Source of the DNA: Candidatus Parcubacteria bacterium
GTDB lineage: Bacteria; Patescibacteriota; Patescibacteriia; Patescibacteriales; UBA12075
Direction of reading: 5' to 3'
DNA length: 64,000 nucleotides
Assembly (NCBI GenBank): GCA_002869165.1
Contig: PKTK01000003.1
Span: 20,195 to 84,194 of the forward strand
Position 1 is the stretch's first letter; each line of letters opens with the position of its first letter. The translations under genes were made by a program, and so were the position numbers. Shown here piece after piece: positions 2,384 through 55,731 of the stretch. The notes beneath the pieces were generated by a model, which was given only the letters and a program-made list of their open reading frames with translations, was not told the origin of the DNA and did not search any database.

Positions 2384-2827
2384 ATGATCGAAATGCCAGG
2401 AATAGAAAGAGTTTACAGTGAAATGGATGACGAGTTCAGGAATGCCCATATTCATGCAGGGCAGTCCACGATCGGCATGGCCTCAAGCTGGGAGGAAATC
2501 GTGAATGATGATCTTGAAGCCATGCAGATGGCTGATGATTACGATCGGTTCGTCCCGATCGAGGAGGCTGTTTGTTGCGATATTTTCGGCAACATCTGCT
2601 CCGGGCATGATGCCGAAGATGCTATCAATCTCTTTGATGCACCGGTAGAGGCGGCGGATGACGATGAGTTTTTTCCGGAAGCCGGATTGACGTGTCGACA
2701 CGTTGGTGGTCGACCGGCAAATCTGGAATCGTCTCGGTTGGTTGTTTTCAACGAACTGGGACCTGTACAGTGCGCCTTTCAGAGGCGTCAGGCTACCAGA
2801 ATGGCCAGGAGACGAATGGCTGCCTAG
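2384..2827 (+). CDS. Acidic hypothetical protein in a visibly G+C-rich ORF (foreign-looking)
   Basis: SD AAGGAGGGAG lies before the ATG, with a consensus promoter upstream and a hairpin terminator downstream. Composition contrasts with the AT-rich flanks. The antisense ORFs 2483-2851 and 2539-2751 are the usual by-product of G+C-rich coding sequence. Confidence 0.65.
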   Translation: MIEMPGIERVYSEMDDEFRNAHIHAGQSTIGMASSWEEIVNDDLEAMQMADDYDRFVPIEEAVCCDIFGNICSGHDAEDAINLFDAPVEAADDDEFFPEAGLTCRHVGGRPANLESSRLVVFNELGPVQCAFQRRQATRMARRRMAA

Positions 2828-2849
2828 TAGAGTAGCCAAAAAAATTAAC

Positions 2850-2885
2850 AAGCCGTAGAGTTAAAATTCTACGGCTTCTTTTTTT
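2850..2885 (+). terminator. Intrinsic terminator of 2384-2827
   Basis: Stem AAGCCGTAGA/TCTACGGCTT followed by a T-run. Confidence 0.7.
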
Positions 2886-2939
2886 GAGTTTAAACAAAAA
2901 CCTTAGATTATGATCTAAGGTTTTTATTATTTTAAAAAG

Positions 2940-3056
2940 TTATTTTTTCTTTTTTGCTTTAGCTTCTAGCATTTGTCTTTTTATCTCTAGTCTTTTTGCT
3001 GTTTTGTGAGATTTAGATTTTTGCGGTCTGCCAACTGCATGATTTCTTTTTGCCAT
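2940..3056 (-). CDS. Small basic protein (38 aa), possibly ribosome-associated
   Basis: My own translation is MAKRNHAVGRPQKSKSHKTAKRLEIKRQMLEAKAKKKK*. It is below the ORF-track size cut-off. No clear SD; a TATAAT lies just upstream. The GRPxKxxSHxxxKR stretch is faintly reminiscent of the L28 N-terminus, but this is speculative. Confidence 0.35.
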   Translation of the reverse strand: MAKRNHAVGRPQKSKSHKTAKRLEIKRQMLEAKAKKKK

Positions 3057-3239
3057 ATTATTGTATTATATTTATATAGAGACTATAACATAAATAAAAA
3101 TTTTAACAAGAGCTTTTTTATTATTTAATTTTTGTTTAAAATTTACATTTAGTCTTTTATTTGCAAAGATGGTAAAATTATGAAATAATCTAAACGAATT
3201 AATACTTTTGAATGTTCTTTTAAAAAAAAGGAGGAAGAA

Positions 3240-4532
3240 ATGAATAGGAGAATTTTACTGTTTACACTTATGATTATTTGTTGTTTGTTTTCGACTAATG
3301 TAATTGCTTCTAAGCCAGTTCCGTTTTGGAAAGTTTTGCGAACTGGTCAAAGTTTCTTTTTATTTGGTAGTCCGATCAAAGTGGATAAAATAATCCAAAC
3401 CAGAGAAATAGAAAAAAATGGTGAGATTTTTTATACCTATAAAGCCATTGTTTGGCGACCGAGTCGTGATGATGGCAGAGGAGTGGCCAGTTTTTATAAC
3501 TTAGTTAATATGAGATTGCATTATATGGCAAGTTTGCAAAGTGATAATCCGTATATTGCTCTTCATGAGACTAAAGATGTGTATCAAAAAATCCATAGTA
3601 ATCCAAGAAAGATTGTTGTTCATGTTATGAAGGGGTTTAAGCCGGGGAGGTATAATTTAAAGATTGCGATTTTTCCTTATCCTATGATAGGGAACTATAG
3701 TTTGAGGCAAGTGATTCAGATGTATAGAAGTGATTATGTTGCCTTTTTTCAGTTTTTAAATTCTTTGAGGTATGTATCTCCTCAGATGGCAATTTTTAAT
3801 GCTGTTTGGTCAAAGGGTGAAGATTATGTTATTGATGAGATCTTAACTAGACTGGCAAATACCTATGGACAGGTTATTCAGCTGGATGTTATGGCAAAAT
3901 TGCCTGATTTGCATAAAATGACAGCCAAGCAGGCTGAGAGAGAATTAAAAAAAAGAAACCTTGTACCCTGGCCAGATTTTAACACCAGAGTAGCAAATAA
4001 CAATCCAAATCTTAGCGGGCGTGTAGCCAAACAGCAGTTTTATCCAGGTAGTAGGCTATACGCTAACACCAAAGTAGCTTACAAATTCTATGCTGATGCA
4101 GGGGGAAGTCAAAATTTTAATCCTAATCCATATGGTGGCAAAGAAATTTGCGGAGATGGGATAGACAATAACAATAATAATCAAATTGATGAAGGGTGCA
4201 GATTTACTCGTGAAATAATATTGGATGACAATAAGTGTGACGATGATACCATGAGATTGTTTGTAGATGAACAAAGCTATGGGGACACACCTCCTGGTCA
4301 CAAAAGACATTACAATGTATCTAAATTGGCCTGGGGTAAACACATAGTTCATGTTGTAGGGATAAATTCTGCTGGAAAGAGTCGAGGATGTAGCAATAAC
4401 AATATTGTAACTTTTGAAATTCGTTTAGGAGAGGGGATTACTTTCATGGGTGGCGGTAATCGTGATTCTGCTGAAGTAGAGGCTGGAGTAAAAGGAAAAA
4501 ATTTTAAAAGATACGAAGTCTTTGTAAAATAA
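3240..4532 (+). CDS. Secreted hypothetical protein with a Cys-rich CGDGIDNNNNNQIDEGC motif
   Basis: GGAGGA SD, an N-terminal signal peptide, and a hairpin terminator at 4541-4570. Confidence 0.7.
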   Translation: MNRRILLFTLMIICCLFSTNVIASKPVPFWKVLRTGQSFFLFGSPIKVDKIIQTREIEKNGEIFYTYKAIVWRPSRDDGRGVASFYNLVNMRLHYMASLQSDNPYIALHETKDVYQKIHSNPRKIVVHVMKGFKPGRYNLKIAIFPYPMIGNYSLRQVIQMYRSDYVAFFQFLNSLRYVSPQMAIFNAVWSKGEDYVIDEILTRLANTYGQVIQLDVMAKLPDLHKMTAKQAERELKKRNLVPWPDFNTRVANNNPNLSGRVAKQQFYPGSRLYANTKVAYKFYADAGGSQNFNPNPYGGKEICGDGIDNNNNNQIDEGCRFTREIILDDNKCDDDTMRLFVDEQSYGDTPPGHKRHYNVSKLAWGKHIVHVVGINSAGKSRGCSNNNIVTFEIRLGEGITFMGGGNRDSAEVEAGVKGKNFKRYEVFVK

Positions 4533-41676: not shown

Positions 41677-41723
41677 TTTTTAGTTTATAGGAATTAGCTG
41701 GTAGTTTTTAGGTGAATATTTTT

Positions 41724-41840
41724 GTCATCCTGGGGCTAGAAGTGGAGCGAATGTGGAACTTCTAGAACTCGGGATCCATTATAGATAGCACGATGAATCC
41801 CGGGTTCTCTTCCGCTCCGCTTCAGAGCCCCAGGGAGACA
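41724..41840. repeat. 117-bp G+C-rich nested inverted-repeat element
   Basis: The outer arms GTCATCCTGGGGCTAGAAGTGGAGCGA and TCCGCTCCGCTTCAGAGCCCCAGGGAGAC pair imperfectly. Inner arms are CTCGGGAT / ATCCCGGG. Confidence 0.75.
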
Positions 41841-41921
41841 AAGGAAAATTTATCTTTTCATTTTATTTTAATTTTTTCCCATTATATGCTATAATGGGGA
41901 TAAGTATAAATAGACTATAGA

Positions 41922-41990
41922 GCACAGATAACAGATAACAGGAAATTTATTATTAGATTTTCTGTTATCTGTCGTCTGTTATCTGTTATC
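41922..41990. repeat. ORF-less long hairpin with (ACAGATA)n-type arms in the pilin 5' leader
   Basis: GCACAGATAACAGATAACAGGA, 17 nt, then TCTGTTATCTGTCGTCTGTTATCTGTTATC. Confidence 0.7.
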
Positions 41991-42072
41991 TTTTAATAAT
42001 TAATCCTCATTTTTGTTGGTTTAATTTCTAGAATTAAGCTAATAAGCGTGTTTTTTAGAAAGGTGGTGAAAT

Positions 42073-42549: not shown

Positions 42550-42621
42550 TCAGATTTGATATAAGAAAAACAAAAAACTGCCCAATTTGAGCAGTTTTTT
42601 GTTTTTTTTGTGCTACTCTAC

Positions 42622-42686
42622 GTGTTATCCTGAACGAAAGTGAAGCCCGCCTAACCGGACGGGCTTCACTTCGTTCAGAATAACAC
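42622..42686. repeat. 65-bp G+C-rich hairpin element
   Basis: The arms GTGTTATCCTGAACGAAAGTGAAGCCCG and CGGGCTTCACTTCGTTCAGAATAACAC are complementary apart from one indel and one mismatch. Confidence 0.8.
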
Positions 42687-42843
42687 AAAAGAAGACGGTA
42701 GTACTTGAAATAAGTTGATAATATACTAGTTTAAAAATTATAAATAATAAAATCAAAAAGTGTTATGTGATATGTGCTGTGTTGTGTTGTGTGATTTATG
42801 ATATGTGTTTCATGATATGTGAAAAATGTGTTATAATATAAAT

Positions 42844-43352: not shown

Positions 43353-43811
43353 ATGAATGACTACGATCAAACAGAGTCTAAGATAAATTGGCGTCAAGCA
43401 ATTGTTTTGCTTGCTATTACGTCATTTTTTGCTATTGCTGCCAGTTTTATGATTATGAATGCTCGCAAGGAGACTAGGGATGTAAAGCGAATAGCAGATA
43501 TTCGGGCAATCCAGCATGCGCTTGAGTTATATTTTTATGACTGCAACCACTATCCTAGTTCAGTTGAAGCAGGAGGTTCTATTTCGTCAGTCAATCAATG
43601 TCAGGGGAATGTTTATATGGAATCCGTTCCGATTGATCCTAATTTTATAGTCTACTCTTATCTTCCTTGCAAGGATGAGGCAGGCACCGATTGTGAAGCC
43701 GGACTTAGCCAGCCATTATAATATCAGTTGTATTACGAACTAGAATCAGATACAGAAAGCGTCTTGGCAGGCAGACACGTGGCTATGCCAGGGAAGTTAG
43801 CAGCTAAATAA
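43353..43811 (+). pseudogene. Pilin-like protein interrupted by an in-frame TAA (43719-43721)
   Basis: A TM helix followed by ARKETRDVKRIADIRAIQHALELY parallels the two pilins. After the TAA the frame reads YQLYYELESDTESVLAGRHVAMPGKLAAK*, which aligns with the pilin C-termini (TQIRFYLENDSGGLSAGLNTINSEG). Confidence 0.55.
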
Positions 43812-43821
43812 AATTATTAAT

Positions 43822-44266
43822 TTATAATTTGTAATTTTTAAACAATTTATAATGATTTAATTTTAAGCTTATATGAAATATGATTTGGAGGAAAGAACGA
43901 TAATGTTTAGTAAATCTGTTATTAGACTTCTTAAAAACATAAGACTAAATGAATATAATAGAAATATAATTAGTCAATTGATTCGATCAGCAACAAGTGT
44001 TGGTGCAAATTATTGTGAAGCAAATGGCGCTAGCAGCAAAAAGGATTTTAGAAATAAAATATATATTTGCAAGAAAGAAATAAAAGAAACAAGATATTGG
44101 ATAGAAATATTAGCAGAAATTAATTGTGAAGAAAAAAAGAAGTTGAGGATAATTTGGAGCGAAGCGCATGAATTAACTTTGATATTTAATAAGATATCAA
44201 ATTCATTAAAATAGATAAATTTATAAATTTGGAAATTAATAATTGTTTAAAAATTACAAATTATAA
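43822..44266 (+). other. Inverted-repeat-bounded module carrying a four-helix-bundle gene
   Basis: Perfect 26-bp inverted repeat: TTATAATTTGTAATTTTTAAACAATT (43822-43847) and AATTGTTTAAAAATTACAAATTATAA (44241-44266). The module fills the gap between the pilin-like gene and pilD. Confidence 0.75.
43873..44214 (+). CDS. Four-helix-bundle protein (23S rRNA intervening-sequence protein / Avd-fold family)
   Basis: YDLEERT...QLIRSATSVGANYCEA...KKDF...KKEIKETRYWIEIL matches the family pattern. Confidence 0.8.
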   Translation: MKYDLEERTIMFSKSVIRLLKNIRLNEYNRNIISQLIRSATSVGANYCEANGASSKKDFRNKIYICKKEIKETRYWIEILAEINCEEKKKLRIIWSEAHELTLIFNKISNSLK

Positions 44267-44281
44267 ATTATAAATTTTTAA

Positions 44282-45091
44282 GTGGTTTATTTACTGTTTA
44301 CATTCATTTTCACCCTGGGTCTTATGATAGGCTCTTTTTTGAATTGTCTGATTTGGCGTTTGCATACCGGGGAAGGGATGATGGATAGGTCACGGTGCCC
44401 GAAATGTAAGCATAAAATTTCTTGGTATGACAATATTCCAGTACTGTCATATCTTTTTTTGCTAGGGAAATGTCGACACTGTAAGGAGGGGATTTCTTGG
44501 CAGTACCCAGTAGTTGAGTTTGTGACAGGAGTATTGTTTTTGCTGGCATTTATGGTAGAATTTCCAATTGATTTTGAAATCCTAAATCTTACATCATTTT
44601 TCATAATTATAAAAAGCTGGTTTGTGATATCGGTAATGATTATAGTTTTTATTTATGATCTTAGGTGGTATTTAATACTTGACAGAGTGATGATCCCATC
44701 ATTTATTATTGTTTTTTTGCTTAATTTAGCCAGTGGATATCTCTCGGGAAACCTGGTGGAAATTTTGTGGAAATCTTTGATTTGTGGTATAATAGGAGGG
44801 AGCTTCTTTTTAATCCAATTTTTAATTTCCAAAGGCAAGTGGATTGGAGGCGGTGATATCAGGCTAGGCTTTTTGATGGGCCTTGTCCTTTTGTGGCCTG
44901 GTGTTATTATCGCTTTAATGTTAGCCTATATTTCTGGTGCCATAATTTCTGTATTTCTTATAATGATTGGCAAAAAGAAATGGGGAAGCCAAGTTCCTTT
45001 TGGGATTTTTTTATCCACAGCTACGATTGTGACAATGTTCTGGGGACAAGTATTGGCTGATTGGTATTTGAATTTAATTTTAGTTACCTAA
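44282..45091 (+). CDS. pilD: Prepilin peptidase PilD (A24 family)
   Basis: N-terminal CxxC...CxxC zinc motif, multiple TM segments and GGGDIRLG. GTG start. Confidence 0.9.
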   Translation: MVYLLFTFIFTLGLMIGSFLNCLIWRLHTGEGMMDRSRCPKCKHKISWYDNIPVLSYLFLLGKCRHCKEGISWQYPVVEFVTGVLFLLAFMVEFPIDFEILNLTSFFIIIKSWFVISVMIIVFIYDLRWYLILDRVMIPSFIIVFLLNLASGYLSGNLVEILWKSLICGIIGGSFFLIQFLISKGKWIGGGDIRLGFLMGLVLLWPGVIIALMLAYISGAIISVFLIMIGKKKWGSQVPFGIFLSTATIVTMFWGQVLADWYLNLILVT

Positions 45092-45098
45092 AATAATG

Positions 45099-45170
45099 AT
45101 TTAGGAAGTAAGATTTATGAATTAAGAAAAATTTTTCTTAAATCATAAATCATAAATCTTAAATCTAAAT
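45099..45170. repeat. ORF-less long AT-rich hairpin between pilD and the 773-aa gene
   Basis: GATTTATGAATTAAGAAAAA (45112-45131) pairs with TTTTTCTTAAATCATAAATC (45132-45151), one mismatch in 20. The outer arms pair imperfectly. Confidence 0.7.
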
Positions 45171-49826: not shown

Positions 49827-52450
<2,624 letters not shown>

Positions 52451-52459
52451 AAATATAAT

Positions 52460-55060: not shown

Positions 55061-55131
55061 GCCATCATGAACAGTACTTTTATCAGTATTTTTTTACTTA
55101 ATTACCTTTTTTATTAGCACACAGATTTTTA

Positions 55132-55258
55132 AAATATTTGTAAATAAAAAAGATGCACTAGCAGAAGAAAGATTTCTAAAAACTGGCAAAGGGAGAGAAA
55201 GAATTAAATATTTGTTAAAAAATTATTTTAAAAACAAGGATAATGGAAGGTTCGCCTA
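55132..55258 (+). repeat. Upstream copy of a perfect 127-bp direct repeat
   Basis: By my reading it is identical to 55451-55577. It contains the last 38 sense codons of the GIY-YIG gene, including the 5' 14 nt of tRNA-Ser(GGA) that the gene end overlaps. Confidence 0.85.
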
Positions 55259-55302: not shown

Positions 55303-55578
55303 ATGTATTACGTATATATATTGTATAGTAAAAAATTAGACTGCCTATACAAGGGAAGTTGTAGTGATATCAAAGAAAGATTTAAAAGACATAATAGCAG
55401 AAGATCAAAAACAACAAGTCGGGGAATACCTTGGAAATTAGTTCATTTGCAAATATTTGTAAATAAAAAAGATGCACTAGCAGAAGAAAGATTTCTAAAA
55501 ACTGGCAAAGGGAGAGAAAGAATTAAATATTTGTTAAAAAATTATTTTAAAAACAAGGATAATGGAAGGTTCGCCTAG
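55303..55578 (+). CDS. Small GIY-YIG (URI-domain) nuclease
   Basis: YYVYILYS....LYKGSCSDIKERFKRHN is the GIY-YIG motif set; 91 aa. The last five codons plus the stop overlap the tRNA-Ser 5' end. Confidence 0.8.
   Translation: MYYVYILYSKKLDCLYKGSCSDIKERFKRHNSRRSKTTSRGIPWKLVHLQIFVNKKDALAEERFLKTGKGRERIKYLLKNYFKNKDNGRFA
55451..55577 (+). repeat. Downstream copy of the 127-bp direct repeat
   Basis: See 55132-55258. The copies are spaced 319 bp apart. Confidence 0.85.
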
Positions 55579-55647
55579 AGGCCTATGGCGCCTGCTTGGA
55601 AAGCAGGTGAGTGCAAGCTCACGAGGGTTCGAATCCCTCACCTTCCG
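55564..55647 (+). tRNA. tRNA-Ser (anticodon GGA)
   Basis: Acceptor GGAAGGT/ACCTTCC, anticodon stem CCTGC/GCAGG with loop TTGGAAA, long variable arm, and T-arm GAGGG-TTCGAAT-CCCTC. Confidence 0.9.
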
Positions 55648-55731
55648 CATAAACAATATCTATGCTCTCTTAATAACAAGAGAGTTTTTAAAATAAAGAA
55701 AACAGGAAACTTTTGTTTCCTGTTGGTAATA

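Follow-up and report, generated by a model that had tools for sequence, protein, structure and literature searches.

Since about 1990, the intervening sequences (IVSs) of bacterial 23S ribosomal RNA (rRNA) have been treated as an oddity of rRNA whose origin is unknown, and for the S23p or four-helix-bundle protein family that such elements can encode, we know of no assigned function outside the diversity-generating retroelements (DGRs), in which the Avd protein serves as a pentameric cofactor that binds both nucleic acid and reverse transcriptase. In Coxiella, the IVS is 428-444 nt long, is closed by a 28-bp stem within which RNase III cuts, carries heptamers of the sequence GACAGAT and contains an S23p open reading frame (ORF) reported to be decaying and probably untranslated (PMC4990558). 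Here we examine a unit of comparable anatomy, located at 43810-44278 of a 64,000-nt stretch of DNA from a Candidatus Parcubacteria bacterium (contig PKTK01000003.1, positions 20,195 to 84,194; this whole stretch is referred to as the window), where it separates a pilin-like gene from pilD in a pilus operon. We hold with moderate confidence that it belongs, as a single copy, to a family of insertion cassettes sharing the anatomy of ORF-bearing 23S rRNA IVSs, expressed by read-through of the operon that houses it, folding through a duplex of its two arms, and encoding a protein that may act on the arrays of short repeats of which those arms are built.

Two further classes of repetitive DNA provide a background to these findings. 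Among small inverted-repeat elements of intergenic spacers, the Correia or NEMIS (Neisseria miniature insertion sequence) hairpins are co-transcribed with flanking genes, serve as targets for RNase III binding or cleavage, and alter the expression of their neighbors (PMC2649163, PMC2229807), with both binding and cleavage by RNase III documented for Correia-element hairpins in mRNAs (PMC2649163); REPINs, for their part, cluster around their RAYT gene (PMC3116915). The second class comprises intergenic tandem arrays of heptamers, which often end beside start codons, often occur as convergent pairs, and are of unknown function (PMC4679880, PMC4692102); none of the names of the four-helix-bundle or S23p family that were looked for appears in either of these heptamer-array papers.

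The unit was first noticed in an initial annotation made from the letters of the window alone, which described arms at 43822-43847 and 44241-44266 as exactly complementary, placed a 113-aa four-helix-bundle gene between them as the sole ORF, and took the whole to fill the spacer between its two neighbors; each of these points was borne out. The perfect inverted repeat proved longer than first described, extending over 30 bp (43818-43847 and 44241-44270), and when four mismatches are allowed it reaches 44 nt at 91% complementarity (43810-43853 and 44235-44278). The fit to the spacer is close, in that the upstream reading frame ends with a TAA (43809-43811) that touches the base at which pairing of the left arm begins, and pilD can begin at a GTG at 44282; the start of pilD annotated by NCBI is an ATG at 44324. 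The cassette is 467 nt in length and forms a discrete unit whose base composition is foreign to its surroundings, with a G+C content of 21% against 36-41% in the neighboring genes. Its arms are tandem 7-nt repeats (lag-7 identity 0.59-0.68) rather than arbitrary complementary sequence. Coordinates of this and related features are collected in Table 1.

Table 1. Features of the pilus-operon cassette, its surroundings and a second cassette, in window coordinates
Feature	Position	Strand	Remarks
Left arm	43810..43853	+	six heptads AATTATT AATTTAT AATTTGT AATTTTT AAACAAT TTATAAT; perfect core 43818-43847
Four-helix-bundle gene (23S rRNA IVS protein / S23p / Avd-fold family)	43873..44214	+	113 aa; PF05635, TIGR02436, PDB 2RLD, AF2 model
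Right arm	44235..44278	+	mirror of left arm; perfect core 44241-44270; ends 3-4 nt 5' of pilD GTG
Upstream pilin-like gene (resembling type II secretion system protein G, T2SS-G)	43353..43811	+	PF08334, E 1.3e-4; orthologues 152 aa, intact
pilD (prepilin peptidase), downstream cistron	44282..45091	+	PF06750, PF01478; P0121 100% identical
Hairpin of inverted heptamer repeats without an ORF, (CAGATAA)n / (TTATCTG)n	41912..41996	+	pilC-pilin spacer; RNA fold -38.5 kcal/mol, z -9.2
Hairpin of inverted heptamer repeats without an ORF, (GATTTAN)n / (NTAAATC)n	45098..45166	+	spacer after pilD; RNA fold z -6.5
Second four-helix-bundle cassette	52004..52451	+	between ligA and gatC; ORF 52039-52398; PF05635, E 2.9e-29

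Because the two spacers flanking the ORF are about 90% A+T, short complementary runs are to be expected between them, and it might be supposed that the inverted repeat is simply a chance product of that composition. We give this explanation no credence: the longest perfectly complementary run in 5000 shuffles of the two spacers was 19 nt, none of the shuffles exceeding that length, as opposed to the 30 nt observed, and the same arrangement recurs in most of the related loci described below. The terminal stem is retained in both the minimum-energy and the centroid RNA folds of 43800-44295 (z -3.7). The arm 26-mer has no second match at three or fewer mismatches within the window, and heptamers of the AATTTNN type are restricted there to this one module, other heptamer types being present at other junctions; for the AATTTNN type, the notion that such arms are a general trait of all spacers in the genome was accordingly rejected. 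Promoter-like sites occur in the cassette no more frequently than in shuffled sequence and no terminator-like site lies within it, which leaves a promoter or terminator belonging to the cassette itself without support.

The protein encoded between the arms can be assigned to its family with assurance, matching PF05635 (E 5e-18; 65.7 bits, cut-off 33.8), TIGR02436 (E 1.5e-24; 86.3 bits, cut-off 24) and, at the level of sequence, the structure 2RLD (E 7e-13), which has five chains. Its AlphaFold (AF2) monomer model has four helices and a predicted local distance difference test score (pLDDT) of 95.2, and Foldseek aligns the model to 2RLD and 2GSC at template modeling (TM) scores of 0.79-0.82 and to DGR Avd proteins at 0.63-0.73. 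The protein is under strong purifying selection, the ratio of nonsynonymous to synonymous substitution (dN/dS) being about 0.05 (0.04-0.08 across ten homologue pairs). When two related loci from a single genome (L061 and L062) are compared, synonymous sites differ by 25% and the arms by only about 2%; together with the low dN/dS, this argues that the protein and the arm sequence are both constrained. The protein has no match in the defense-system libraries of PADLOC, and no relative was found in viral contigs that would suggest carriage by phages.

The cassette protein and PilD each match, at 100% identity, a protein recorded at NCBI for the organism. Relatives of the cassette protein number more than 5000 (the best 120 listed are 67-77% identical), the named organisms among them belong nearly always to Patescibacteria, the candidate phyla radiation (CPR) lineage, and the loci in species-representative genomes exceed 500. 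We fetched 80 Patescibacteria loci, of which 74 could be scored for arms and 78 for orientation with respect to the upstream gene, and 20, those with the most GC-rich flanks, were scanned for rRNA. In most of the 74, arms of the same type surround the homologous ORF; their consensus is (AATTTYY)3-5 AAACAAT TTTCAAT upstream, and its mirror image downstream. A periodicity of 7 and 14 nt runs through them (lag-7 identity about 0.50-0.51, compared with about 0.30 at neighboring lags), and the number of heptamers at the cassette ends varies between loci. Complementarity of the two arms is greater within a locus than between loci (mean score 18.1 versus 13.7), a difference that none of 5000 permutations reached. 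A member of the family would typically consist, on this evidence, of a gene for an S23p/Avd-fold protein of about 115 aa set between two inverted arrays of tandem heptamers, some 460 nt in all, the median length of the units scored being 464 nt.

Across the 80 loci the G+C content of these units is about 0.25 and that of their flanks about 0.42. A long ORF lies next to the unit on either side; the left arm starts a median of 6 nt past the upstream stop codon, and the right arm is separated by a median of 12 nt from the earliest start codon of the ORF downstream. The gene is co-oriented with the upstream gene at 77 of 78 loci and with both neighbors at 61, and at none do both neighbors run opposite to it. 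No rRNA was present in any of the 20 loci scanned, nor is there any in the 64-kb window, and the cassette, flanked by the pilin-like gene and pilD, sits in an mRNA operon rather than in rRNA, as had been proposed. The genes that flank the family are themselves diverse, forming 73 singleton families with varied housekeeping genes among them, and a few junctions recur among relatives, namely those of pilC with a pilin gene, glpX with fba, and phosphoglycerate mutase with a DHH gene.

The cassette has been copied to new gene junctions. The clearest case is that of L061 and L062, which lie on two contigs of one genome and are about 96% identical over approximately 476 nt, with unrelated flanks; the similarity is bounded exactly, from the first heptamer of the left arm to the last heptamer of the right arm. 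L013 and L050 likewise show similarity from arm to arm between unrelated flanks, and at L016 a second complete unit lies 0.9 kb away. In the flanks of several loci there are ORF-less units of 100-130 nt that keep both ends, two near-identical copies of which occur in L011, and other units have GC-rich hairpins in place of the ORF. Many of the loci stop at contig edges, as repeats do. The suggestion made at the outset that the unit is a mobile module is thus supported by sharply bounded, near-identical copies at unrelated sites and by ORF-less derivatives, as well as by ORF-free junctions in orthologous operons, to which we now turn.

In the three closest orthologous pilus loci (L081, L083 and L084), PilD is 64-66% identical to that of the window and the gene order is the same, comprising pilB (where the locus reaches it), a response regulator, pilC, pilin genes, the 152-aa pilin-like gene and pilD. 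A database of 5.8 billion proteins holds no PilD of greater than 66% identity other than that of the organism itself, and a clean empty site among closer relatives was not found. Two of the three orthologous junctions have no ORF: L081 has a spacer of 53 nt, and the spacer of L084, 97 nt long, retains traces of heptamers and folds into a hairpin (z -4.8). At the same junction, L083 has another insert (2690-4000), in which a 100-aa GIY-YIG gene is embedded in long GC-rich inverted and tandem repeats, with a heptamer motif resembling the right arm lying 3' of it; this junction is therefore a landing place for different small cassettes. In L084, four AATTTTC heptamers followed by AAACA are also found inside the annotated pilD coding sequence (4289-4321), where a solo arm may be tolerated in a variable loop of the protein.

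Hairpins of one kind or another are present at every junction of this pilus operon. The heptamer arrays of the window are confined to the two cassettes and the two ORF-less pilus-spacer hairpins listed in Table 1. GC-rich inverted-repeat hairpins occur in addition in pilus-operon spacers at 41700-41840 and 42620-42690, and similar ones of the form gtcat...gcgag are found within the heptamer arms or loops of L032, L042, L053 and L084 as well as next to the GIY-YIG gene in L083. These hairpins resemble a second small repeat family nested in the heptamer one. The heptamer hairpins that lack an ORF at the L084 junction and at other junctions of the operon show that the repeat is not strictly tied to the ORF, and they leave room for the alternative raised by the initial annotation, that the repeat punctuates the polycistronic transcript.

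These ORF-less hairpins raise an explanation of a different kind, in which heptamer hairpins are a host regulatory device punctuating the pilus transcript, with effects on its stability, processing or translation, and the protein is an array-binding regulator whose gene merely happens to be housed in one of them. Such a device would account for a hairpin at every junction of the operon, two of them ORF-less heptamer hairpins, for the persistence of one at the orthologous L084 junction, for the retention of the cassette at some junctions across relatives, and for the strong conservation of both arms and protein; heptamer arrays that end by start codons have, moreover, been proposed as translational regulators (PMC4679880). 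It accords poorly, however, with the foreign base composition of the unit, with the great diversity of the unrelated junctions that are occupied, with the duplication of whole units to new sites, with the different, selfish-looking GIY-YIG cassette at the L083 junction, and with the confinement of the AATTTNN heptamer to one module of the window. We consider it distinctly unlikely.

An in-frame TAA at 43719-43721 interrupts the pilin-like gene in the window, where three other assemblies of the organism (L085-L087) read TCA, the base at 43720 being A in the former and C in the latter. The cassette is identical in all three. Over 5.3 kb, 8-9 sites differ between the window and these assemblies (including 43719-43721, 41916, 42011, 42377, 44806, 45686, 45706 and 46644), and at nearly every one of them the assemblies have G or C where the window has A or T.

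The second cassette of the window, between ligA and gatC, is of the same construction. Its arms (52004-52034 and 52421-52451) are 31 nt long, 90% complementary and composed of TAGCTTC heptamers; the stop codon of ligA lies inside the left arm, and the ATG of gatC (52460) follows 8 nt past the right arm. An in-frame TAG at 52075-52077 replaces a conserved Trp codon, and if it is read as Trp the match to PF05635 improves to E 4.4e-35; this could reflect either a pseudogene or a base difference of the window copy. The gene escaped detection by tblastn because it belongs to another subfamily, and its product weakly matches a phage Avd family (E 1e-4). That match, and the fold and superfamily that the cassette proteins share with Avd, might suggest that the gene is an Avd accessory protein of a DGR and that the repeats are part of such an element. 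The TM scores to Avd are nevertheless weaker than those of about 0.8 to 2RLD or 2GSC, no long ORF of the window has a reverse-transcriptase motif, no pair of template and variable repeats lies near either copy, and the neighbors are pilus genes in one case, ligA and gatC in the other, and diverse housekeeping genes in the 80 related loci. Given the lack of both reverse-transcriptase motif and template/variable repeats in the window, we rejected a DGR role as highly improbable. Elsewhere in the window, a 132-nt direct repeat (55127-55258 and 55446-55577, 98% identical and 319 nt apart) was noted, the second copy of which overlaps the 5' end of a tRNA-Ser gene (55564-55648).

The association of this protein family with inverted heptamer arrays extends well beyond Patescibacteria. 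We examined 12 distant members (31-47% identity; L088-L099) on plasmids of Cyanobacteriota, Bacteroidota, Bacillota, Chloroflexota and Spirochaetota. All 12 are intergenic, at junctions such as drmD-MmeI of a DISARM (defense island system associated with restriction-modification) locus, hsdS-hsdR, cas2-cas1, csx2-cas1, the adaptor and permease genes of a resistance-nodulation-division (RND) efflux system, and fabH-peptidase, with helicase-methylase and DUF1156-Swt1 HEPN contexts in addition. Nine are co-oriented with both neighbors, nine have significant flanking inverted repeats, and in 11 a 7-nt period is detectable in at least one flanking spacer, the twelfth (Chlorohelix) having an upstream spacer of 10 nt that was not scored. 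The heptamers are specific to lineages (GATTTAC, AATTCAA, TGGTCAC, CAGTTAA/TAACTGA-like, CGGAAAG, TAATTAG and ATTTTAG). In Euhalothece and Chondrinema, the arrays that flank four-helix-bundle genes are similar to TTGGTCA and TAACTGA. As a control, 50 kb of a Nostoc plasmid was found to contain 14 heptamer arrays, indicating that these are common there; the single four-helix-bundle gene in it has, within 70 nt on its two sides, inverted copies of one heptamer array, and this heptamer also forms an ORF-less pair elsewhere. Soil metagenomes supplied 17 relatives of the second paralogue; at 10 of them the inverted repeats are significant, with periods of 7, 11 or 14 nt, and a pheS-ORF-pheT junction recurs. 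Flanking inverted repeats, first proposed for the single pilus locus, therefore characterize most of the 74 Patescibacteria loci scored, the second copy in the window, and the majority of plasmid and soil members.

A plausible course of events can be proposed from these features. Having neither promoter nor terminator signals of its own, and obeying a nearly invariant rule of orientation, the cassette is, we infer, transcribed by read-through from the pilus operon. In the resulting RNA the arms would pair into an A-U duplex of 30-44 bp closing a loop of about 390 nt that carries the ORF, which would set the end of the upstream cistron, with its stop codon, beside the start of pilD. The same duplex would be a likely substrate of RNase III, as are the stems of rRNA IVSs and Correia elements. 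Through either juxtaposition or cleavage, an insertion of some 460 nt could be rendered nearly harmless to expression of the operon. By analogy with the pentameric Avd and with 2RLD and 2GSC, the protein may bind nucleic acid, most plausibly the heptamer arrays themselves, and, more speculatively, could help to maintain or spread the cassette and its ORF-less derivatives; that the derivatives share the ends of complete units suggests such an action in trans, following the logic of transposons with their miniature transposable elements bearing inverted repeats (MITEs) and of RAYTs with REPINs.

Several observations weigh against this proposal. If pairing in the sense RNA were selected, G.U mismatches might outnumber A.C mismatches in the stems; across 56 stems the counts were 27 and 22 (p 0.57), with no asymmetry, and selection for pairing in sense RNA is therefore not demonstrated. 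This result, and the conserved motif of the arms, would fit equally well if the arms were recognized in the form of DNA, or if a protein recognized their motif. No rnc gene occurs in the window. Target-site duplications are not visible at L061/L062 or L011, where the palindromic AATT...AATT ends could hide one of 4 bp, and no transposase, integrase or reverse transcriptase was found. Recent duplication, at about 96% identity, is evident in one genome pair only, and the conservation of many positions among relatives argues that movement is rare. Outside Patescibacteria, 3 of the 12 plasmid copies are anti-oriented to their neighbors and 3 have no significant inverted repeat. Finally, ORF-less hairpins are present both at the orthologous junction and in other parts of the operon, and the heptamer hairpin may be an older feature at the level of the host.

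Some of the same observations lend themselves to a DNA-level account, in which the unit is an inverted-repeat transposon with MITE-like ORF-less derivatives, its arrays being terminal inverted repeats bound in trans, possibly by the four-helix-bundle protein, and any pairing in RNA incidental. The sequence motif conserved in both arms beyond mere complementarity, the absence of strand asymmetry in the wobble test, the sharp boundaries of the units, the retention of both ends by internal-deletion derivatives and the repeat-like truncation of many loci at contig edges are all what such an element would lead one to expect. On the other hand, neither a target-site duplication nor a transposase was seen, a variable number of heptamers is unusual for precisely cut transposon ends, and the near-absolute co-orientation with host transcription is unexpected, unless there were selection for expression of the ORF. 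We regard a transposon of this kind as possible though doubtful. An integron cassette was also considered and provisionally set aside, in view of ends that do not resemble an attC core, no integrase nearby, and arms on both sides of the ORF. The account that we favor for the pilus unit remains that of an insertion cassette of IVS-like anatomy, carried by read-through and tolerated by virtue of its paired arms.

The likeness to 23S rRNA IVSs, anticipated from the window alone, is supported at each level of anatomy. Size (428-444 nt in Coxiella burnetii, 467 nt here), a terminal stem of 28-30 bp, a PF05635 S23p ORF enclosed by the loop, and a 5' arm containing tandem heptamers (AATTTNT in the window, GACAGAT in Coxiella) all correspond to the Coxiella-type element (PMC4990558), and read-through from the host unit, known for the IVSs of Coxiella and Leptospira, would be a further common trait. 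The cassette family is probably homologous to the ORF-bearing IVSs. It differs in lying between protein-coding genes of operons instead of in rRNA, in the strong selection on its protein, as opposed to the reported decay of S23p in Coxiella, and in occurring as many copies over many junctions, with ORF-less derivatives; excision by RNase III, moreover, is established for rRNA IVSs, and for the cassette would follow by analogy. Since the location in rRNA that defines an IVS is absent, we do not class the cassette as one. Our literature search found no account of genes of this family as inverted-repeat cassettes outside rRNA, although subscription journals were mostly uncovered and a prior description is possible. 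Overall, these findings point to a cassette of much broader occurrence, residing at co-transcribed gene junctions, for which the rRNA IVS represents one habitat; the cassette is common in Patescibacteria and present in at least five other phyla.

A cautionary corollary concerns guilt by association. The four-helix-bundle family is listed as associated with CRISPR adaptation modules (PMC10910872); this link, and the positions in restriction-modification, CRISPR and efflux operons recorded above, may reflect a habit of insertion rather than a shared function. The findings also link the S23p family with tandem heptamers, whose excess in the intergenic DNA of bacteria has lacked an explanation. 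A bolder generalization, which we offer as a speculation more apt to fail than to hold, is that, across bacteria, tandem-heptamer arrays have S23p/Avd-fold proteins as their partners acting in trans. The gene between inverted arrays would then be a "master" copy, as RAYT is to REPINs, and ORF-less hairpins and arrays, including short tandemly repeated repetitive (STRR) sequences, TAACTGA arrays, GGGAATC pairs and short rRNA IVSs, would be derivatives, bound and so moved or maintained by the pentamer without a canonical transposase, perhaps via an RNA intermediate in the manner of Avd and its reverse transcriptase. If true, it would explain jointly the origin of rRNA IVSs, the function of S23p and the intergenic excess of heptamers.

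Compared with other small repeats of intergenic spacers, such as the Correia/NEMIS elements of Neisseria, the enterobacterial repetitive intergenic consensus (ERIC) and REPINs, the cassettes are alike in being inverted-repeat units present in many copies at unrelated sites, and their ORF-less derivatives of 100-130 nt are of a size similar to that of Correia and MITE-like elements. The latter are non-coding and shorter than about 300 bp, whereas the 467-nt unit of the window encodes a conserved protein, the ORF-less derivatives being found only in other genomes; they also differ from the cassette in that its arms are tandem heptamers, and in that neither a TA duplication nor an HUH or DDE enzyme was found for it. 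Heptamer arrays disposed around a four-helix-bundle gene offer a possible analogue of REPINs and their RAYT. With the cyanobacterial STRR sequences, the TAACTGA arrays of Beggiatoaceae and the inverted GGGAATC pairs of Xanthomonas, the cassettes share tandem 7-nt units in intergenic DNA; they are set apart from these by arrays that form the two ends of a gene-carrying unit.

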